A stretch of DNA of 64,000 bases from Eledone cirrhosa. Lineage: Eukaryota. Below the pieces are notes generated by a model. It ran no database searches, was not told the DNA's origin, and was given only the letters and a program-made list of their open reading frames with translations. The translations under genes were made by a program, and so were the position numbers. The stretch is from NCBI GenBank assembly GCA_964016885.1, contig OZ024741.1, forward strand, positions 93,496,001 to 93,560,000. The letters are read 5' to 3'. Below are positions 2,105-51,676 of this stretch, piece by piece. Positions within the stretch are counted from its first letter, which is position 1. Every line of letters begins with the position of its first letter.

Positions 2105-2460
2105 TTTTTTACTTACCACAAATTATACGAGTTAATCTAAGAAAGGAAGTACAAAAGTTGCATGCGCAGAACTTCTATTTCCTGCACATTGTTTCGTATT
2201 TTACGAAATCTAATTAAAAAAAACAACTAACATTTTTATATATATTTATATCGTAATCAAATTTAGTAATATGTGTGTATATGTATATATATATATATAT
2301 ATATACATATTACAATATACTAATATAAACCTGTTTTTTGTTTTTTTGTAACTAGATTTCGTAAAATACGAAACATAGTGCAGGAAATAGAAGTTCCGTG
2401 CATGTAACTTTTGTAGTTCTTTTTTTAGATTAATTGATTTACTTTGTGGTGAGTAAAAAA
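2105..2460. repeat. Imperfect inverted duplication of the RPL8 promoter/first exon around a (TA)n spacer
   Basis: 2105-~2235 is the near reverse complement of ~2325-2460. Example: tagatttcgtaaaatacgaaac..gtgcaggaaatagaagttc occurs in both arms. Confidence 0.93.
2117..2149 (-). promoter_or_regulatory. RPL8: RPL8 TCT initiator / 5'TOP non-coding first exon
   Basis: Minus strand cttcCTTTCTtagattaactcgtataatttgtg|GTAAGT. It matches the YYC+1TTTYY TCT motif typical of ribosomal protein genes (C at 2145) and is followed by a strong donor. TGCGCATGCA and CAGGAA motifs lie upstream. Confidence 0.75.
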
Positions 2461-2494
2461 CCTTTTCATACATACACAATAATAATAATAATTA

Positions 2495-2709
2495 CTTTTG
2501 ATTTAGGCACGAGGCCAACAATTTCTTTGGGGGTGGAGAGTCGATTAAATCGACCCAGTGTGTTACTGGTACTTTATTTTATCGACCCCATAAGGATGAA
2601 AGGCAAAGCTAACCTCGGCGGGATTTGAACTCAGAACGTAAAGGGCCGCAACTCTATGCTGCGAATCATGCTATCGACGCTCTACCGATTCTGCCAATCC
2701 ACCACCCTC
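2495..2709 (-). mobile_element. tRNA-derived SINE, near full length
   Basis: A-box-like ggattggcagaatcggtagagcg, B-box gagttcaaatccc, shared core and gtgcctaaat tail. Confidence 0.85.
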
Positions 2710-2711
2710 AA

Positions 2712-3197
2712 TAATAATGGCTTCATTTATTGGCCACAGGGGCCGACATATAGGGGACAATACAATAGACGCGAACAGTGGGGGTTTACATATAAAACAT
2801 GTAAAAAAAAAATAATAATAATAACAAAATAAGAAAAATACAATAAGAATTACCCAATAAGGGAGGATAACCACCTAGTGTTGTCTCAGTTACCCCACCA
2901 ATCCTGAACCGCCTGACTCTTCGAGGGTACCCGGGAAGGGTACCTCTCTCAAATTCACCAGTCTACAGGCACATGATCAGAGTAGGCACACTCACACGGG
3001 CCATTCTCGCCATATTCACCCACCTATTAGCAAATGTACTGGGGGGGGGGGGACTTCTCTCACCACCCTCACCTTCCTTTCCAAGTGAAACTTGAAAAAG
3101 TTCATGAGGCTTTGGCCGAAGAGAAAAGTGTCTGTCTTCAGTCCTTTCAACCTGGTCCACCATAAACCTCTTTCGCTACTGCCACCAGACAGGAAAT
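2712..3197 (-). mobile_element. L1/Tx1-like LINE 3' end (ORF2 C-terminus, 3'UTR, AATAAA, (ATT)n tail)
   Basis: Frameshifted peptide ...LVAVAK..WWTRLKGLKTDTFLFGQSLMNFFKFHL...FANRWVNMARMARVS, then a T-rich UTR and ccaataaatgaagccattattatt. Confidence 0.55.
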
Positions 3198-3492
3198 AAT
3201 AAGTATGGATGAGGTGTCAAATTTTCGTTAAGTTTATTCGTGATGCGCGTTTTACAATTGATCAGCTCAATATTCGATCTCCATCGATTGGGCCCGACTC
3301 TAGAATCAAAAGCTCATCAAACTACTGTTAACCAAATGATGGAATGATTCCCGTACCGCAAAAAAAAAAAAAAAAACGCTGATGAGCTCTTGATTCCAGG
3401 ACTGGGCCCGATCGATATAAATCGAAACTTGAGCTGATCAATAATAAACTGAATAAACTTAACGAAAATTTGACACCTTGTCCATACTTATT
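3198..3492. mobile_element. Foldback MITE with long terminal inverted repeats
   Basis: aataagtatggatgaggtgtcaaattttcgttaagtttattc at the left pairs with gaataaacttaacgaaaatttgacaccttgtccatacttatt at the right; complementarity continues inward about 120 bp. Confidence 0.8.
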
Positions 3493-3499
3493 ATAATTT

Positions 3500-3618
3500 T
3501 GGCGTTCTGAGTTCAAATCCCGCCGAGGTTAACTTTGCCTTTCATCCTTACGGGGTTGGTAAAATAAAGTACCTATAATACACTGAGATAATTACTGGCC
3601 TTGTGCCAAAAGTAAAAA
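3500..3618 (+). mobile_element. tRNA-derived SINE, 5'-truncated
   Basis: gttctgagttcaaatcccgccgaggttaactttgcctttcatcc...ggccttgtgccaaaag. Confidence 0.8.
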
Positions 3619-3739
3619 ATTATTATTATTACACTCTGCTTAGTACAACTCCGAAGTACATAGAGTAGTCACTTTGGTGAACCAACTAAATCCACGCTAC
3701 AATCCCTAAACTATATATATATATATATGTGTGTGTGAG

Positions 3740-4147
3740 AGGGAGATTCCTGGGTTTAATCGAAGGTAATACATAGAAGCCATGCTAAGAGTTTTGCAAT
3801 CGCTTGTCAGATTCAGATGTGTGATGATCGGATATGGCTGTTCGAAGCCTGCTAGAGACTTGCACTCCTTCGCACATTGACGACATCTATGGATCTCCCC
3901 TGCCTCAGGTTGCCTGTGAACCTTCACAATACTGTTCAGATCATAGTTCAGTTTCTCTCTGAACATGGCTGCAACTGTGGCTCCTGAGACCAGATTTGCT
4001 CAAGCAAATCTTTCCACACTTCTATTCAATGGAGAGGCCGATCGTTTCGAGAGATACATTAGGGCATTGCACATCCCATTTGATCTTCTCGTGCTCTATG
4101 CGTCTGTCCTAAAAATTATGGACCCCATCATTCACCATTCCAGAGCT
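3740..4147 (-). mobile_element. RTE-type LINE 3' fragment with C-terminal C2H2-like zinc fingers
   Basis: Degenerate peptides CGKICLSKSGLRSH and CRQCAKECKSLAG; ends in a CA/TA microsatellite. Confidence 0.6.
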
Positions 4148-4171
4148 AATTATATATATATATATATATAT

Positions 4172-5958
4172 AAGAATTAAAATACTAGTGTGTTGGAGTT
4201 AAACACCCTCTTCATATTATAGAAATGACAGTATAGGATATAGCTCAATGTAATTAAACAGAGCCGAAGAATTATAAAAAATAAACCAAAGAAGCCTTCA
4301 ATACATCAAAAGTCTTTATTAGCCAACAATGTTTCGTCCTATTAAGGACTCATCAGGGCAAGTAAAGCTACAAGAAGCACTATCGGCCAATACAAGCCAA
4401 AAACTCAGAAGAATATGGGGTATACATCTATTAAAGCTTAGGAAAGATATTAAGGAAAAGTTGGCTAAGAATAAGAGTGAGCAGTTACAAACATAGATAT
4501 GGACCAAATAGCAAGGAAGTGATTAACATGTTGAACCCACACTGCAAATATTGTATAATGCAAAATCTTGAAACACAAATGGTAATATAATGCAAGTATA
4601 ATATAATAAATAGATGGTGATGATAAAAAGCTTAATATATGTATATATATACATATATCTCTATACATATACACATTAGTACAAATACAAACTAACACTT
4701 ATTAAGTATTTAAATATATATATATATATATTGTTTACAGTATAATATAATTAAGATAAAAATAAGAATAAAGATAAAGATAAAAATAAAAATAATATAT
4801 AATTCCCTGTCAGTGTGCATAAACAATATAGAAACATTATAATAACAATATTATAATATATTGGCATCAAAAGATATACAAAATTACATCATACGCATAA
4901 TTTAAGGTTAACAAATAGTATAAAGTTTTACACAGGGTAAGAAAAACTCATATAGAACTAAATTGTGTCGAAAAAATTGTGTTGAAAATATATCTATACC
5001 ATTGTAACAAATACACGGAGGTCAAGTCATTTTACATTGGCATAAATATTACCAAAATATCACAAAATATTACAAAATATATTTACGTGGTTGACATACA
5101 GACATATATTAATGAAACTACATGGTCAGACAAACAGCGTGTGGTAGTAAAAAAATAAATTAAATAAACGGAAGATCGAAAAACAAAAACAAGTATATTT
5201 ACTTAGGTGTCACAGGCGGTTAAGTAAAAGAAAAAAAGATAGAAATGTAGATCAGAGAGTTGACTAGAGAAACCTTTTTAAATTAATTAATATTAAAAGT
5301 ATTTAAAATACATATTTAGTCACTTTAAAATTGGCTATTTAAGTCATCAAAACCGTATAAGTTTAAGATATCTCAATAAAATTATCAAGAATAGAGTAAA
5401 ATATGCTTCGTTCAGTCGAATAACGTTATCAAATAAAAGGACTCTAAATATAACTACGGTAGACCAATGGGAACAGAAAGAAGAGAGGTTATGGAGGATA
5501 GGAAGGAGCATAAAATTAAAATCAATATATTATATATCATAAAAAGGAGCATAAAGGTGTAATAGAAGGGGCGGATATTAAGTGTGTAGAGGAGGAGGTA
5601 CATTAGTTGAATGAGACTCCAACCAAAGTATTTAATAAGATATAAACCCATAAGGTGTTAGTAGTGAAACTATAATAATGCTTAAGACGATAGATAGAGT
5701 ATGGTAGCCAAAAGACTATGGAAACTAAAATCGAAAAGTAGTAAAAAAACTAATAATAATAAAGATGATGGTAATCAAAATGAACCTAAACAAAAAAGAT
5801 AAGGAAATATAGCAGCTAATGGATACGATTTAAACTACCAGAACTTTTAGGTCTATAATAGAAGAAAGAATTAGAAATGGTGTGGGGGCAGGAAGAAAAT
5901 ATCTCAGACTTTCTATTAAGCAAATATTAAGAAAATATCTCAGACTTTCTATAATTTT

Positions 5959-5960
<2 letters not shown>
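4172..5960 (-). mobile_element. Penelope-like element remnant (AT-rich, non-coding) bounded by (TA)n
   Basis: Carries a minimal type I hammerhead near its minus-strand 3' end and is flanked by (TA)n tracts. No ORF recognised and the boundaries are approximate. Confidence 0.45.
4322..4359 (-). ncRNA. Minimal type I hammerhead ribozyme
   Basis: Minus strand GCC-CUGAUGA-GUCC(uuaaua)GGAC-GAAA-CA(u)UG-UU-GGC: intact core, stem II, very short stem III, GUU cleavage triplet, stem I GCC/GGC. Confidence 0.75.
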
Positions 5961-6006
<46 letters not shown>

Positions 6007-6017
6007 TACATATTTAT

Positions 6018-6378
6018 AACGAAGGAAGTGTGGTAAGGAACCAGGTGGACCATAACGCACCACAGTACTCACTCGATACTTAGGGTAGTAGAGTGGGTAA
6101 TAGGATAAGAGTCAGGACCCCGAAAGCTGAGATCTGGCCACTGCTATGAAGGAATTTAACTATGTATACAAAACCTTTGACCACTCCCCGTGACAGAAAA
6201 GAAAAACAACAATTTTTAGAATTGTTTGATATGATACTACTGCTGTGTTTTCATTTCATTCCCATATATGGACTATACTCCTTGATAAGCTCAGCTAGAT
6301 TACAACCGTCCTACCACTTCTGTGTCTAGCTGTCGAAACGGCCGGAGCTCAGCCGTCGGGGTCCTGACTCTTTTCCTA
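6018..6378. mobile_element. Penelope-like foldback non-autonomous element (related copy at 9970-10160) with degenerate hammerhead at 6278-6347
   Basis: Inverted arms aagagtcaggaccccg..gctgag..ggcc and ggccggagctcagccgtcggggtcctgactctt; core ctcc-TTGATAA...GAAA-cg-gcc-ggag; sits in (TA)n. Confidence 0.55.
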
Positions 6379-6393
6379 TATATATATATATAT

Positions 6394-9144
6394 AGATTAT
6401 ATCCTTACCAGAAGACGTGACAGAGTGTCTGTTGTAAAGACTAAATCCCTCCGCCATGAAAAATGCACCTCCTAACATAGACTCATAGTCAGGACGAGAC
6501 GTACTCGACAACAGAGGAGGACTATCCTCAGGAGAAAAATATGGAGGCTAAAGGACCCCACAGCCAGTGATAAATTTAAAAGCATATTACTTGATGCTTT
6601 TGACAGTAATGAAGAGCAATTAGAGTTGTACAATATAGAGGAACAGTGGGAATTCCTGAAAGCTAACCTGCTGAAGGCGACAGATGAAATCTGTGGCTGG
6701 AGCAGACCTATAGGCAGGAGGAGAGTAACTTGGTGGTGGAACAGTAAGGTGGAGGAGTCAATCAAGGCCAAAAAGCAGGCTTGGAAAGTATGGTGGGATG
6801 GGGGAAGTAGAGAAGAATATCAAGTGACCAGGAGGGAAGCTAGGAGACAAGTGTACTTTGCAAGAAGGGAAGCAGAGGATAGAAAGTTCAAGCACGTTCT
6901 ACAACGTGAGGACCAAAAGCGTGAGGTGTTCAGGATTGCTAGGCAATGTGTCAAGGAAAACCGTGATATTGTAGGGGAGAAGTGTATCCTTAATGATGAT
7001 GGTGTACTTGCCATCACTGACGCTGATAAGAAGGTAGCTTGGAAGTGTCACTACGAAAGCTACTAAATGAGGAGAATAAATGGGAGAAAGACAGCCTCCC
7101 CCACATCGATCCAATAGAGGGATCAGCAGTGCAAGTTGAAGGTAGTATAATAAGTAAGCGATCAAAGATATGAAGACAGGCAAGGCGGCTGGGCCTTCGG
7201 AAATAGTTGCTGAAATGCTGAAAGCATCTGGAATGGTGGGACACACTATGGTCACCCGGACAGTAAACCAAGTCATACAGAATGGGGTTGTACCGAAGGA
7301 CTGGCGTAGCATCATCATCATTAACTGCTACAAGGGTAAAGGAGATGCCCTAGATAGGGGAAACTATAGAGGCATTAAATTAATTGACCAGGTCATGAAG
7401 GTCACAGAAAAAGTAATAGCGCAACTAATCAGAAAGCGAATTGATCTAGATGAAATGCAGTTCGGGTTTGTGTCAGGTAAAAGTACCACAGACGCTCTTT
7501 TCATTGTACGACAACTACAGGATAAGTACCTAGCTAAAATTAAACCCCTATACTTAGCTTTTGTTGACTTGGAGTAAGCCTTTGACAGAGTCCCATGCCC
7601 CATTATCTGGTGGGCTCTCAGAAAACTAGGTGTTGATGAATGGCCTGTGAGAGCTATACAAGCCATGTATAAAGAAACAGTCAGCAAGGTTAGAATTAAC
7701 AACGAATATAGTGAAGAGTTTAGCATCAAAGTTGGTGTTCATCAGGGCTCTGTCCTTACTCCCTCCTATTTATTATTGCCCTTCAAGCTATAACAGAGGA
7801 GTTCAAGACCGGCTGCCCATGGGAACTCCTATACGCAGATGATCTAACGCTCATAGCTGAATCAATGGCTGAACTAGAGAAGAAATTCCAAACATGGAAG
7901 CATGGCCTAGAATCAAAAGGCCTTAAAATTAACCTGTCTAAGACTAAAGTTCTAGTATGTAGGAAGGAAAATAGGGCACTGGTCCCATCTGGGAAATGGT
8001 AGGTAGAAACTCCATTTTATGTCCCAAATGCAAAGTATGGGTGCATAAAAGATGAAGGGGGATCACAGGTAAGCTAACTAAGAATATAGATTTTATATGT
8101 GGCCGGTGCTCAGGTGCACTAAGTAGCAGCAAGTGCCCACAGAATACTAGCTCATTCCATTGCACAGATGGTTCTATAGAAATAGTGGATACCTTCCGTT
8201 ACCTGGATGACAAAATCAGCAGTGGTGGAGGGTGCTCTGAAAATACAGTAGCTAGAGTCAGAACGGGATGGAAAAAGTTCAGAGAGCTTATACCACTATT
8301 GGCCACTAAAGGTTTCTCTCTAAAAATGAAAGGCAGGCTGTATGATGCCTGCATACGAACAGCAATGTTACATGGCAGTGAGACTTGGGCATTGTGTGCA
8401 GAGGATATACGCAGACTGGAGAGGAACGAAGCTTGCATGCTCCGTTGGATGTGTAATAGTAATATACGTGAACGGCAAAGCATAAATGAACTAAGTGAGA
8501 AATTAGGAATAAGAGGGATCAGATGCTGTTTACTTGAGAGAAGACAACGTTGGTATGGTCACGTGATGCGCATGAAAGACGACAGCTGTATAAAAAAGTG
8601 CAGGGCGATAAAAATAGACGGTAGCCACGGAGTAGACAGACCCAGAAAAACCTGGGACGACTTGATAAATTCTGACCTCACACACACCTCGCCAAGACAA
8701 TGTCACTAGACCGAGATCTTTGGCGCTATGCAGTAATACAGAAGACCCACCTTGCCTAAGTACAAAGCGAAACCTACAGTCAGTAGGCACCTCTTAACAA
8801 AAATACACCCCTGTCCCACTACCCCCACCCCATCCACACCACCCCTTTCGATGTAAAGTTATGTAGGTACCACAACATCCAGTCCTAAATAAATGAGGTC
8901 GTGTAGGTGTCACGACAAAAAAACACAGTCCATGCTGTAATGTGGCCGTGTAGGTAACACGGTAAAAACCTCTCAGTCCACACTTGTAAACGTGGTTGGT
9001 GTTAGGAAGGGCATCCAGCTGTAGAAAACCCGCCAGACAGTCCTATACGAGCAAGACAACCAATCTTGCCTCAAGTGGGAAAATTCCCGTCCAAACCCAT
9101 GCTAGCGTGGAAGATGGACGTTAAACGATGATGATGATGATGAT
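6394..9144 (+). mobile_element. RTE-clade LINE, 5'-truncated and disrupted (end of APE endonuclease, reverse transcriptase, Cys-rich finger, 3'UTR, (GAT)n tail)
   Basis: DYIL..HRL endonuclease end; KGKGD..NYRGIKL, QFGF, FVDLE, GVHQGSVL, YADD (7832-7843), MLHGSETW, RWYGHVMR. Several stops and frameshifts. Tail aggaagggcatccagctgtagaaa...ggacgttaaacgatgatgat. Confidence 0.93.
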
Positions 9145-9149
9145 ACATA

Positions 9150-9380
9150 CATAATAAACAACACAATATAATTATTCCATTACCAAAGCTTCTTCATCAG
9201 AGGAAATATTTATTTCATCTGATGAACGAGCTGGACGTTTCTGTAAGGATCGTCTAGTCTCCTGAAACCTTTGGTAATGTAATAATTATATTGTGTTGTT
9301 TATTATGAAATTAACTAGCTCTGTATTATACATAGAGCGCTCTTCTTTCTTTTACCTTTTCTACGGAAATACTTATCACG
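9150..9380 (+). mobile_element. Penelope-like foldback element
   Basis: Inverted arms cataataaacaacacaatataattatt..cattaccaaag and ctttggtaatg..aataattatattgtgttgtttattatg enclose a hammerhead. The 3' tail catagagcgctcttc...cggaaa is shared with 10430-10600. Confidence 0.6.
9216..9279 (+). ncRNA. Type I hammerhead ribozyme
   Basis: CAU-CUGAUGA-(a.gagcuggacg...cgucuagucuc.u)-GAAA-CC(uuu)GG-UA-AUG; GUA cleavage triplet. Confidence 0.65.
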
Positions 9381-9502
9381 CATATATATATATATATAAT
9401 ACTTTGGGAGGGTCATGCTGCCAATAAAATCACATGCACCTGTTCGTTTTCACTTCAATTAGTTGGTTGGTTTAATAACTGGATGGTTGTTTATTGTCAA
9501 AA

Positions 9503-9647
9503 CTCTTTCGTCACACATTCTGTGAACTCCTAAGTGACTAATTTGTTATGTTGTGTCCCTCCTTTATTCTGTCCTGGTGTAGAACACAACAAAGAGACAC
9601 AAAATAAATTAGTCACTGAGGAGGTCACAAAAAGTGTGACGAAAGAG
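9503..9647. repeat. Imperfect hairpin (about 50 bp arms), probably a foldback MITE
   Basis: ctctttcgtcacac..tgtga.ctcct.agtgactaattt pairs with aaattagtcactgaggaggtcaca..gtgtgacgaaagag. Confidence 0.7.
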
Positions 9648-9846
9648 CTGTTGTGACTAAAATTTCCGCACCTCTTTCTAGCGGAATAAAAGTCCACTTT
9701 TGTTTCTCTCTCTTGCTTTGGGTTGAACATGACTACACCATATGGTTTTCAGCTTGATGAAAGTTTTGTTGAATATAGACAGGTATATTGTTTTATATAC
9801 TGTTTTTGCCTCTGTATTTTATTTCGAAGAAAATCATCAGGAAAGC

Positions 9847-9890
9847 CTGATGAATTCTTTCGAATGAAACAATTCCAATCCTGTAAAAGC
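9847..9890 (+). ncRNA. Hammerhead core at an inversion junction (5' strand of stem I disrupted)
   Basis: CUGAUGA-AUUC(uuuc)GAAU-GAAA-CA...UG-UA-aaagcc, immediately preceded by the inverted copy tcatcaggaaagcc. A related copy lies at 61330-61530. Confidence 0.5.
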
Positions 9891-9969
9891 CATTTCTATA
9901 TTTAATATTTATACTCTGCTATATATTGAGTACCTTTCTTACTGTGCTTACCCTATATTTATATATATA

Positions 9970-10160
9970 ACAAAGAGGGTGTGGTAAGATACCAGGTTGA
10001 CCATAACGCACCAGAGTACTCAGTACTTAGGGAAGTAGAGTGGGTAATAAGAAAAGAGTCAGGAGCCCGACGGCTGAGCTCCGGCTGTTTCGACAGTTAG
10101 ATCCGGATCTAGATGTCGAACTGGCCGGAGCTCAGCCGCCAGAGGCCTGACTCTTTTCCT
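9970..10160. mobile_element. Penelope-like foldback element, same family as 6018-6378
   Basis: gtgtggtaag..accagg..gaccataacgcacca..gtactc head and palindromic aagagtcagg...cctgactctt body. Confidence 0.6.
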
Positions 10161-10439
10161 ATATATATATTATATACGTATTTGTGGTCACACATACACT
10201 GATATGCTTGCCCTCATATATGTACTTGCGCACATATTTTTTCACTATACACATGCATTTGTATATACACACATATGTACATTTGTGAGTGAATATACAC
10301 ACATTTATACACATACCCTAACTATATTTCCTTATATTTTTATATATCTCTTGCATTACTTTTATTTATATTCTTTTTGCCCGTTAAACTTTTGCCTTTT
10401 TTGAGGAGATTTTTCAAATATTTCACTATGTTTTAAATT

Positions 10440-10598
10440 GCCTTATCCGACGAACGAATGAGGACGTTTTTCGTATTCGTCTTATTCGGGAAACCTCTGG
10501 TAATGTATTGTTTATTATACATTAAATTTACCTAGAGCACTTACATAGAGCACTCTTCACTCCTATGACTTTTTCAATTTTCAACGGAAACTTCAATA

Positions 10599-10600
<2 letters not shown>
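10440..10600 (+). mobile_element. Penelope-like terminal remnant with degenerate hammerhead (CCGACGA...GAAA-CC-ucu-GG-UA)
   Basis: Same layout and 3' tail as 9216-9380; the core is mutated at two positions. Confidence 0.5.
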
Positions 10601-10650
<50 letters not shown>

Positions 10651-10759
10651 CAAAGAGATATTGAATTTGTTGGTAATTCAACAAATATATTTATAACATA
10701 TTCGAAGCACTCGACAGTTTTCTGGAGTATAATATCAATGATATTAATAAAACCATATT

Positions 10760-10820
10760 TATTCTATTATATATATTTCAAGGGTACCAAAACTTTGGTA
10801 CGCTTTCATCAGATAAAATA
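10760..10820 (-). ncRNA. Type I hammerhead ribozyme (minus arm)
   Basis: uauuuuau-CUGAUGA-aagcguacc(aaaguuuu)gguacccuu-GAAA-uauaua-UA-auagaaua. Confidence 0.65.
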
Positions 10821-10916
10821 CAAAATTTGTTTTATAAATAGTGACATACACAGGAATCAGACCAAACGGAACCTGAACCGTTAAGGTCTGATTCACTATT
10901 TATAAAACTAATTTTG

Positions 10917-10977
10917 TATTTTATCTGATGAGAGCGTACTAAAGTTTTGGTACCCTTGAAATATATATAATAGAATA
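10917..10977 (+). ncRNA. Type I hammerhead ribozyme (plus arm)
   Basis: uauuuuau-CUGAUGA-gagcguac(uaaaguuuug)guacccuu-GAAA-uauaua-UA-auagaaua; 8-bp stem I, palindromic stem III, AUA triplet. Confidence 0.65.
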
Positions 10978-10989
10978 AATATAGTTTCC

Positions 10990-11315
10990 ATTTATTTTAG
11001 TCTTTATTGTGTTGTACCAGATGAAAGAATGGTATTTAACTAATGTATTGGTACGCGATGGGGCCCACCCACAGCCCCGGCGGACAGAATGGAGAAGGCG
11101 TTTCCCCGGGGGACGGCAAGGGAGACGCGCTGGAAAAGCCACTCCAACTCGCGGGGCTGACACATGCGGCTGGCCAGTTCAGCGCCTATGATGGTGAGTA
11201 AGTAGGTAGTCTTGGGGCTGAGGACACCAGAAGTCTCCATTGCCAGGGGAACGACCGCAAACCTGTCGGAGGGCGACCGGTATTTGAGGAGTTTGGCCCC
11301 CTCAGCCCGACGTAT
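10990..11315 (-). mobile_element. CRE-like non-LTR retrotransposon 3' end (restriction-like endonuclease C-terminus)
   Basis: KYR...VPLAMETSGVL...WLFQRVSLAVPRGNAFSIL resembles the FVPxAxETxG...QRxSxAxQRGNA motif. Short UTR with AATAAA; abuts a long (TA)n. Confidence 0.7.
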
Positions 11316-11327
11316 TAATATCATTGA

Positions 11328-11351
11328 TATATATATATTTATATATATATA

Positions 11352-11410
<59 letters not shown>
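11328..11410. repeat. (TA)n microsatellite (others at 2285, 4151, 5963, 10601, 48325, 49044)
   Basis: Direct reading of the sequence. Confidence 0.95.
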
Positions 11411-11412
<2 letters not shown>

Positions 11413-12009
11413 AACATTGTTTTCCTTGACCCTTTATCTAAGGATATCCTGCACACACACACACATACATAAAACAATGTTCAATATATATGTAGCCTAT
11501 AAAATTGCCGAATAAATCTGGGAAGCTACTCTTAGAGACAGGAATCTCTAAGGGTAATTTACCAAACAACCTCCTTTTTGCTATCGGGGCAGCAGTAGTG
11601 AGCCTGCGAGTTGGAATGGCATTTTCAACACCTCTCCCTCGCTATCTCCTGGGGAAAATCTTTCCATTCTGTAAATTAAGACCATGAGGCAGCCGGCGCC
11701 AGAGAGCGTTCTCCCACATTATCATGTATGACTGGAGTAGCAATGGTATAGGTTGCTGATATTTATGCTTACACACGTTTAACTGAAGATAAATAAGATA
11801 TATTAGTTAAGTCCAGTAGTGGTGTACGCCGAAATAGTTTCATAGTTAATTTATAATACAAAATGAACAGTATACAAATATATAATTCAAAATAACGGTA
11901 TAATTTTTTTCTTTCAGAATGCCTACCATAGCTATCACGATGTAATAGTTTCACTTTCAAAATACGATCTCAGATCAAGTAACTAACTGTGTCCATAAAA
12001 ATAAACAAC

Positions 12010-12103
12010 TAGGAAGTGGTCAGAGTTACGTCCCTTCATGATTATCCCAGTTTCATCATTTCAGTTATTTACGTTCTAGCACCAGTGTCCACTAGTGAAC
12101 AAG
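12010..12103 (+). promoter_or_regulatory. Candidate piwi core promoter and non-coding first exon
   Basis: GGAAGT ETS-like site at 12012, Inr-like TCAGTT at 12061, AAG|GTATAG donor at 12104. The piwi ATG exon starts at an acceptor, so an upstream exon must exist. Confidence 0.35.
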
Positions 12104-12794
12104 GTATAGTATCCTTTTTATCTAACTACAACGCTTTATTTTAACTTTCTTAATTTGATTTTTATCGCCTCAGAACATAAGTATTCTATTATATAATATA
12201 CTTAAAGGACTCCTTAAACTTTTTATTTTTATAATATGTATTTAGCATGTGGATGTATTAACATTAAAAAAAGTTAGTAGTGTTAATGTTGATTATGAGA
12301 GGTTAAGTTAAATTATTGCATGTAGGCAAATAAACACGTGGTCAAACAAGGGGATTAAATATCTTTCAGTTGACACCTAGCAAAACAACGAAAATGTGCC
12401 GATATTTTAAAGGATATGAGAAAACCACGATGTTCATTTTGATTGAGAAACTTAACAAAAATGTTTTCCTTTAATTTTTTTGCTGACTAAATGTTTTCAT
12501 TAATCAATAAACATTTAAAAATAGGTTCACTAGACAGCAATGTTGAGACATTTTCAAGAAAATGAGAAATATTATGCTCACTGTCTATGTCGCGTGGTGA
12601 TTGAACCCATGGCGACCCTTCGTTTCATGTTTAAAATATTTTGATTATTTTGACTTCAAATCTTTGCATGAGCGGATGTTAAACAACAACAACAACGATA
12701 TATATATATGTATGTGTGTATATATATATACGTGTGTGTGTATATGTATGTGTGTATATATATATACTATATATATATATATGTGTGTGTGTGT

Positions 12795-12934
12795 GTGGCG
12801 CTAGGAAGGGCATCCAGCCAGAAACAGTCCTACATGAGCGGGACGCGTCACCCGACCCAACTTGCCTCTAAGTGGGATAAACCTGACTAACTCATGCTAG
12901 CGTGGAAGATGGACGTTAAATGATGATGATGATG
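12795..12934 (+). mobile_element. SINE / LINE 3' tail (RTE-type, (GAT)n end)
   Basis: aggaagggcatccagcc...catgctagcgtggaagatggacgttaaatgatgatgat. Confidence 0.8.
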
Positions 12935-13639
12935 TATGTGTAGTCTTCCTCAAAATACCGAATTTTCACTTTCATATTCCACAATGCATCAAACAAACTA
13001 CGTTTTATGTGTATGTGTGTGTATATATATATACACACACACATACTTTTGTATAAGATGTTGACCAACCGGGTTACAACACTCCAATCACTAAATGATG
13101 ATGCAATTAGATTAAAGCACTCAACAGGTGTATCCTTCCAAATGCAATTCGATAATCCATGACAGAGTATACATATGATAATGATAATTGCGAAGACCAG
13201 ATGTAGATATTCATAACTCATTTTATTCAGAATCTGCAGTAATACATATTTCTGTGGTGTCCATGATACACAAAACAGCCATCATGCAACCACCAACACA
13301 CACATATATTATCCCCCCCCCCCCCCCCGCCAACTCTATCAGTCACAACCACCACACCACTACGTTCCTTCTCTCCATACACTAATGGCTATCCCTTGCA
13401 CACCATTACCTATCTCTCCTTCACCCCCTCCTCACATTACTAACCCCACCTCTCCCCATACACTAATCAGCCCGCCCCTTACTCATTGCCTTGCCAAATC
13501 ACCACATACATCTATAACTTTATTCCTATCTCCCTCCTGTATTGCTCCCCTCTCCAGGTTTCTGTATTTCAGAAGGTGGCTCTTCTACAGTATAGTGAAG
13601 TGCCAGAGATCTCTGTGTCATCTTTGAGAGTTTTAATTT

Positions 13640-14225
13640 TGGAAGGTCAGCTTTTATCACCATTGGCACGAATACCGAATTGAAGATAGCAAGTTTGGCT
13701 TTTACACCTTTCTCCCATTTTCTGATTATCTTCTGCTGAAATTAATGCATTATTGCACCAGCTCCTATAGTTCTTGCACTTAATTCAGCCCCCTGTCTTC
13801 CATCACTCATGAACACAGCTTCGAGATACTTGAGCTTCTCCACCTGCTTCTGTGAAACTCCATTCACATGTAGAGTACACTATGCAGGGAGGGTGAGTGT
13901 CTCAGTTTTCGATGCACTGATTTTCATTCCAGCCATGTAGCACTTGGCATCAAACCTATCAAGTGCATGTTGGAGATCACCTTCTGTCGAGTTAAATAAC
14001 ACCATGTCGTCTGCAAATTCCAGCTGATTGATTTTATACCTGCCAATTGTGATACCACTTCCAATTCAGATGCGCATGTCAATCTTGTTCATGAAATTAA
14101 TGAACAGGAAAGGTGACTGTATGCACCCTTGGCGGAGTCTCACTCCCTCATTGAATGATTTTGATTTAGCACCATTTATCTGAACACAAATACTCAGGCA
14201 TTCGTATAGAGACATCAGAGCAGCA
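13640..14225 (-). mobile_element. RTE-type LINE reverse transcriptase fragment (second family)
   Basis: Minus-strand degenerate LRQGCIQSPFLFINFM...LEFADDMVL...DLQHALDRFDAKCYMAGMKISASKTE...QVEKLKYL. Confidence 0.75.
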
Positions 14226-14718
14226 ACATTGGAGATTGTTCTGCTTAGCAGTTTCTGCTGTTAAATCCTGTGGGGTCGGGCGCCGGATGGCATAGGAACC
14301 CTTGGTTCAATCAAGAGGTCAAAGATGCCAGTCGAGCAAAGAAGGATGCTTACAAAGTGTTTTAAGGCCATTTTCCTTTGTGGACCCCATGACTAGCCTC
14401 TCCATCTTGCCATATTGTCTGCATTCACTTTCACTAATCTCTTGGCATTCATTTCCTCCTCGATCATCTCTAGCCATATCTTTCTTGATTTTCCCCTTCC
14501 TCTACTTTCTTCCACATACATTTTGATCACTCCTCTCACCCTGTTATTTTCTTCCTCTCCTCAACACAAGCCAACCATCTAATTACATTACTGGCTCTAT
14601 TTCCACCATCCTCTGAAATTTATTGTTTGTCTTCCTTTCTCCATTATACTCTGCTTATCCACTGAACAATTCTCGTTTCCTTCCTTTCCAGCCTTCTTTG
14701 CTGCTTCATGTTCACCAT

Positions 14719-15468
14719 TCATCATCATCATCATGGTTTAACGTCTATCTTCCACGCTAGCATGGGTTAGATGGGAATTGTCCCTCTTGAGGCAAGATTG
14801 GTCAGGTGACCGTGTCTCGCTCGTATAGGACTATCTGGCAGGTTTTCTACGGCTGGATGCCCTTCCTAACACCAACCACATTTACAGTGTGGACTGGGAG
14901 GTTTTATTAGTTTGGACTGGATGTTATGGGTTGGTGTTGGTGGGAGTGGGAGGATGGAGTAGGGGTAGTGAGTTGGGGTGTATATTTGGTTAAGAGGTGT
15001 CTACTGACTAGGTTTTGCTTTGTACATAGGCAAGGTGGGTCTTCTGTATTACTGCATGGCGCCAAAGATCTCGGTCCAGTGCCATTGTCTTAGAGAGGTG
15101 CAAGTGTGTAAGGTTGGAATTTATCAAATTGTCCCAGGTTTTTCTGAGTCTACCTACTTCATAACTTCCATTAATTTTGATCGCCCTGCACTTTTTTATA
15201 CAGCTGTCGTCTTTCATACGCATCACGTGACCATACCAACGTAGTCTTCTCTCAAGTAAACAACATCTGATCCCTCTTATTCCTAATTTCTTACTTAGTT
15301 CATTTATGTTTTGCTGTTCGCGTATATTACTATTACCCATCTAACGGAGCATGCATGCTTCGTTCCTTTCCAGTCTGTGCAGGTCCTCTGCACACAATGC
15401 CCATGTCTCACTGCCATGTAACATTGCTGTTCGTATACAGGCATCATACAATCTGCCTTTCATTTTTT
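14719..15468 (-). mobile_element. RTE LINE 3' fragment, same family as 6394-9144, antisense within the piwi 5' intron
   Basis: ORFs 15008-15340 and 15341-15538 are nearly identical to 8185-8709; (CAT)n tail at 14719. Confidence 0.9.
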
Positions 15469-15732
15469 CTATTATTCTATTACATGTTGCAGCTGAGAGG
15501 CGGTGGCCATGATGGGGCACAGCCATTACTCGGGACACTCATGTCTCACTCCTATATATCATGCCACTTCTCACACTTGCAGCATACATCTTTTTCTTCA
15601 GTTTCAGAAATAGTCCCTTCCTCATTACCTAACCACTCAGTTCCCAGAATTTGTTTGTGTATTATTATAATACTGCCATTAAATAAAGGTTAAAATGTAA
15701 CTTTATTGTTTTTGTTTTTTGTCAAGAACGAA

Positions 15733-51676
<35,944 letters not shown>

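Follow-up and report, generated by a model that had tools for sequence, protein, structure and literature searches.

The locus studied here raises the question of whether an inverted copy of a ribosomal protein gene promoter supplies the first exon of piwi. The window, a stretch of 64,000 nucleotides of Eledone cirrhosa DNA, carries on its minus strand a gene that the original prediction had named RPL8, and this identity was borne out, since positions 561 to 698 of the minus strand translate to residues 1 to 46 of uL2/RPL8. These residues are encoded by exon 2 (561 to 705), the first coding exon, which has its ATG at 698 and an acceptor and a donor that were read from the sequence. The next gene on the plus strand is indeed a PIWI gene: one of its exons scored 103 bits against a solved Piwi, 98 bits against PIWIL1, and 81 bits against PIWIL2, compared with 34 bits or less against Argonautes. 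Protein comparison placed the piwi coding region, from the ATG exon to the stop, at 15727 to 51676. A degenerate 48-nt tandem array lies inside a piwi intron (19424 to 19801), and the genome contains three further Piwi-domain genes (G000:C15 at 25.91 Mb, C23 at 2.33 Mb, and C24 at 1.10 Mb). At the level of titles and the opening lines of abstracts, the literature showed no link between an RPL8 promoter and piwi; supplementary annotation tables could hold a piwi 5' UTR. No publication was found on TCT promoters of ribosomal protein genes in molluscs.

A local inverted duplication at the 5' end of RPL8

A palindrome scan of the window revealed an inverted repeat with two arms of 119 nt each (2105 to 2223 and 2342 to 2460) that are 87% complementary and separated by 118 nt. 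In the gapless alignment of the arms, 103 of 119 bases were identical. The 16 differences comprised 9 transitions and 7 transversions, with C to T as the most frequent class (5/16). Pairing extends, with one 15-nt gap, into the TA-rich spacer (2224 to 2341), which forms the centre of the palindrome and is still partly self-complementary according to alignment and folding; 2105 to 2460 as a whole is one imperfect palindrome. Its folding energy was -105.7 kcal/mol (z = -22.6), and none of 100 shuffled sequences was equally stable. The proposed inverted duplication of the RPL8 promoter and first exon across a TA spacer was thus confirmed. Homology between the arms ends at an A run immediately past the donor, and alignment revealed no homology to RPL8 intron 1 on the right of the copy apart from common dispersed repeats. 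Each arm also contains a perfect smaller inverted repeat with a 7-bp stem and a loop of 3 nt (2192 to 2208 and 2357 to 2373), identical between the arms, that is possibly a factor-binding palindrome.

When positions 2110 to 2215 of the RPL8 arm were compared with the whole 3.0-Gb genome (E ≤ 1), two matches were obtained, namely the arm itself and its inverted copy, whereas a palindromic element nearby gave 636 candidates in the same search. Wider genome matches to the palindrome region covered just the spacer and adjacent A/T-rich bases. On the basis of this difference in copy number, the segment at 2105 to 2460 is a local inverted duplication and not a transposon family. Judged against the features of a MITE, it possesses terminal inverted repeats and has neither many dispersed copies nor a target-site duplication; on reading of the sequence, the flanks differ, and an old target-site duplication could have decayed. 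Another palindrome of the arm-(TA)n-arm type (89%) was observed within the predicted intron 1 of RPL15 (L032:5221-5412).

Putative TCT starts in RPL8 and in the copy

TCT core promoters of metazoan ribosomal protein genes are described as TRF2 dependent, with the consensus YYCTTTYY (PMC4102762). The inverted-repeat scan and the alignment delimited in the RPL8 arm (2105 to 2223, minus strand) a core promoter, a predicted TCT start (C+1 at 2145), a 29-nt non-coding exon 1 (2145 to 2117), and a GTAAGT donor. Three minus-strand candidates with a TCT motif and a donor were found between 713 and 12000; 2145 is the nearest, and the remaining two are inside repeats. Among six independently chosen ribosomal protein genes of the same genome, five showed a TCT-like start, a short first exon, and a donor upstream of the first coding exon, which makes 2145 credible as the transcription start of RPL8. 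For the sixth gene, RPS17, the motif scan listed no such layout.

In RPL8, the word GCGCATGC precedes the predicted start by 14 nt; the copy has lost this word. The word occurs at the identical 14-nt distance before the TCT-like start of a gene at G000:C8:30340721+, which was picked by that word and which we take to be RPS15 from its peptide motifs. None of the six independently chosen ribosomal protein promoters carried GCGCATGC near the start, and a genome-wide pattern search for it returned mostly repeats. In view of its absence from these six promoters, we rejected both the word as a general promoter element of ribosomal protein genes and its loss as a strong sign of decay. A near-identical 35-nt element between two GCGCATG words has many occurrences in G000:C13 and C15 and is possibly either a repeat or a promoter element shared by the members of a gene cluster.

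The inverted copy (2342 to 2460, plus strand), which is single copy in the genome, comprises a putative core promoter with a TCT motif (C at 2419), a 30-nt mini-exon (2419 to 2448), and a GTGAGT donor at 2449. The consensus YYCTTTYY is present at -2 to +6 in both arms. At the position of the RPL8 +1 C, the copy has a T (2420), and the adjacent C at 2419 forms its motif. The expectation of an intact TCT motif, a mini-exon of unchanged size, and a consensus donor therefore held for the motif at C2419 and for the donor, whereas the exon measures 30 instead of 29 nt and the +1 C lies one base away from its counterpart in RPL8. Changes between the arms in these motifs were A to G at donor position +3 and C to T within the pyrimidine tract, both of tolerated kinds. 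From the putative start at C2419, the C is followed by 7 pyrimidines, giving a run of 8, while that of RPL8 has 7. By consensus, the copy looks like a TCT promoter, with putative activity. It is like metazoan ribosomal protein TCT promoters, as these are characterized in PMC4102762, in having YYCTTTYY around the start, a short non-coding first exon, and a strong donor, and unlike them in that it is a diverged mirror image with a displaced and putative +1 C and faces a gene that does not belong to translation.

In a neutral simulation that placed 16 random substitutions on the RPL8 arm (100,000 trials), the TCT motif survived in 48% of the trials and the donor in 52%; the two survived together in 24%. 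On the plus strand, TCT-plus-donor pairs numbered four in 13.4 kb, or about one per 3 to 4 kb. Given these two frequencies, the intact TCT motif and donor are weak evidence of function. The pair at 2419 was the sole one of the four located outside repeats. The best-kept block, which lies upstream, had 2 differences in 44 positions (p = 0.23 after scanning windows). A clustering of the 16 differences was considered and rejected, as its Fisher p of 0.019 with hand-picked borders became 0.23 after the scan.

The 5' structure of piwi

The ATG exon of piwi (15727 to 15801, ATG at 15733) opens at a splice acceptor, as had been anticipated: an AG precedes it, and a spliced contig joins it to 17240 to 17324. 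This contig, from run X4, is the sole RNA evidence; it comes from a set of four runs of one study, for which the library type is unrecorded and none of which is recorded as RNA. Runs X1 to X3 covered 30 of 30 bins of the region from 15560 to 17400, and run X4 covered 12 of 30. We read run X4 as RNA because exons are covered and because a single record, a contig of 3,559 nt, joins 15801 to 17240 and is hence spliced.

Upstream of 15727, the contig has 187 letters ending in CAAG; the match reaches 15723, that is, 4 bases beyond the acceptor, and 183 further letters precede it. A direct join of 2448 to 15727 would predict an overlap of 1 base and at most 30 upstream letters. The direct splice of the original prediction is therefore not the form present in the sole spliced piwi contig. 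A donor scan of the sequence that separates the copy from the ATG exon found three plus-strand donors in which GT follows CAAG. For the donor after 12103, counting back 187 letters leads to 11917; this base is the G of an acceptor in which 11 of 14 bases are pyrimidines. For the remaining two, an acceptor scan found no acceptor within 3 bases of the predicted exon start. At a frequency of 0.001 to 0.003 acceptor-like sites per base, the chance of the 12103/11917 fit is approximately 1 to 3.5%. From these lengths and site positions, we infer that the 187 letters correspond to a 186-nt 5' UTR exon (11918 to 12103, plus strand) plus one base. No genomic repeat match was found for this predicted exon. 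Three upstream ATGs occur in it, and their frames of 8, 1, and 13 codons each terminate ahead of the main ATG. The acceptor at 11917 suggests that a further exon is located upstream.

An assembler may end a contig at a branch point at which two short paths with a single end base in common come together. The mini-exon at 2419 to 2448 and the genomic acceptor at 11917 have exactly one end base in common, and for this reason the start of the contig one base before the exon at 11918 to 12103 fits the exon of the copy. Of 20 GTRAG donors in 2300 to 11917, 5 share one end base with the acceptor, including that of the copy; the other four (4936, 6032, 9983, and 11193) are inside repeats or directly adjoin them. 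The original interpretation is partly supported: the copy may be a TOP first exon of piwi, in an altered form that would run through the probable intermediate exon at 11918 to 12103.

Repeats and CpG content between the copy and the predicted 5' UTR exon

The interval from 2470 to 11790, which would form the first intron of piwi if transcription starts in the copy, is filled with repeats, as judged by matches in the genome. They include a 1.75-kb element (up to 96%), a LINE (up to 94%), and a palindromic element (98%), and repeats cover at least 54% of the interval, compared with 9% of RPL8 intron 1. Since many of them (94 to 98%) are younger than the 13% divergence of the arms, the distance from the copy to the predicted UTR exon was probably far smaller at the time of the duplication. 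At 2470 to 3192 there is a high-copy repeat of 720 bp that is 82 to 86% identical to its best copies and whose AAT-run end lies 10 to 20 nt past the copy. This repeat may be about as old as the duplication and possibly stems from the same event. Because such an old repeat begins 10 to 20 nt beyond it, the homology endpoint at the donor is no sign of selection.

The observed/expected CpG ratio was 1.31 in RPL8 intron 1, 0.64 in the interval, 0.90 at 11790 to 12690, and 0.30 in the piwi body. It drops from about 0.9 to about 0.3 near position 13000 and stays low to the end of the window, past the piwi stop. DNA methylation in octopus has been reported on gene bodies, with 6,545 genes unmethylated over their first third (PMC9476566). 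As octopus methylation sits on gene bodies, the CpG step leans toward a piwi start near 10 to 12 kb. CpG decay in the repeats of the interval, taken as a possible marker of gene-body methylation, amounted to 17 versus 10 (p = 0.25), and the GpC control was skewed likewise. The LINE copy in the interval had lost 5 of 32 CpGs, a loss within the range of 1 to 8 of 28 to 33 seen in 10 close relatives.

Discussion

On the reading that we favour, at about even odds, the copy serves as the first exon of piwi, having arisen by a foldback duplication and being spliced from 2448 to the exon at 11918 to 12103 and from there to 15727 rather than directly. Folding back or switching template at the TA run would have produced a mirror-image copy of some 180 bp from the 5' end of RPL8. 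Transcription of the copy would initiate at C2419, by which the piwi mRNA would gain a TOP start of 8 pyrimidines, and the transcript would consist of 2419 to 2448, 11918 to 12103, and the exon at 15727, with a predicted leader of 222 nt. Later insertions would have lengthened the first intron of piwi to approximately 9.5 kb. Two TCT promoters that mirror each other would, on this model, drive RPL8 and piwi in a head-to-head arrangement. We are more tentative about the full extension of this model, in which the new half of the pair formed by foldback would be the main first exon of piwi, transcribed through TRF2 and TCT and translated under TOP control, tying piRNA defence to growth in this lineage.

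A serious, if doubtful, alternative is that the copy was left over from a foldback duplication and is now decaying, and that piwi starts locally at about 11.5 to 11.9 kb, either at the TCT-like run of the acceptor, at a mini-exon at 11574, or at a repeat-derived promoter. Decay of the copy is consistent with the joint retention of both motifs at a probability of about 0.24 under neutrality, with C to T as the commonest change (5/16), with the frequency of chance TCT-plus-donor pairs (about 1 per 3 to 4 kb), and with the abundance of local palindromes (22 rows in 155,709 bases); the loss of the GCGCATGC word points weakly in the same direction, given that 0 of 6 other ribosomal protein promoters carry it. 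A local start is favoured by the CpG-rich unique sequence around 11790 to 12690, with its sharp fall past 13 kb, and by the T-rich acceptor at 11917, which fits 7 of 8 TCT positions. However, genes unmethylated over their first third are common in octopus (PMC9476566), and this weakens the argument from CpG content. The inferred end of the contig, moreover, falls exactly on the acceptor G and not on a random point past a start, and non-repeat sequence upstream of 11918 extends over just about 130 bp. The rival mini-exon found by the motif scan (11574 to 11597, plus strand) has 24 nt, a TCT-like start, and a GTGAG donor, and it lies at a repeat edge, with repeat matches from about 11592; its donor context is weak, and it has 0 end bases in common with the acceptor, which would leave the one-base overhang of the contig unexplained.

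We consider it unlikely that the copy is instead an active promoter for a non-coding RNA or piRNA precursor that runs through the repeats or for a minor piwi isoform, including the direct form from 2448 to 15727. The intact TCT motif and donor and the mostly repetitive interval would agree with such a product, and contigs drop rare variants, as a minor direct form would be, but the sole contig carries a different exon before 15727. It is highly improbable that the palindrome represents a MITE or arose as an artefact of assembly. Palindromes of the arm-(TA)n-arm type and high-copy palindromic elements are frequent in the genome; however, the count of two genome matches against 636 and the lack of a visible target-site duplication both argue against a MITE, and a foldback chimera made during assembly would yield near-identical arms, whereas these are 13% apart.

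If the copy is the first exon of piwi, the locus can be related to several known systems. Head-to-head, or bidirectional, gene pairs are a known class of divergent genes. RPL8 and piwi would resemble them in their divergent orientation, with 274 bp between the predicted starts, and would differ in that the two starts are copies of each other and not the two ends of one element. LARP1 has a role in the control of 5'TOP mRNAs. These mRNAs are described as being under mTOR control (PMC8047918), and a piwi mRNA from C2419 would similarly begin with a C and 7 pyrimidines. Unlike the 5'TOP mRNAs of that report, it depends on a putative cap-adjacent start, and the predicted piwi UTR has three upstream ATGs. 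Similarly to HYDIN2, for which a promoter gain is reported (PMC5345166), piwi would have acquired a new 5' end by rearrangement, although here some 180 bp would have been duplicated locally and in inverted orientation, as opposed to the large segmental duplication of that case.

In a snail and an oyster, Piwil1 and Piwil2 are reported to be expressed across somatic tissues (PMC6128900). Broad piwi expression would consequently be no new effect of the copy, nor would the copy be needed for it, because both species of that study already show such expression as a rule. If the copy does not serve piwi, it is an ordinary decaying inversion, and the corrected 5' structure of piwi would stand as a by-product even then. 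The two arms offer a natural experiment on the bases that a TCT promoter needs. If the model is true, it would represent the birth of a promoter in one step, in which about 180 bp of mirrored sequence give a neighbouring gene a housekeeping promoter, a first exon, and a translational control element. With a PIWI gene that has a TOP leader, one could ask directly and at low cost whether transposon defence rises and falls with growth signalling, and a gene for transposon silencing would be under control of the type that governs ribosomal proteins.
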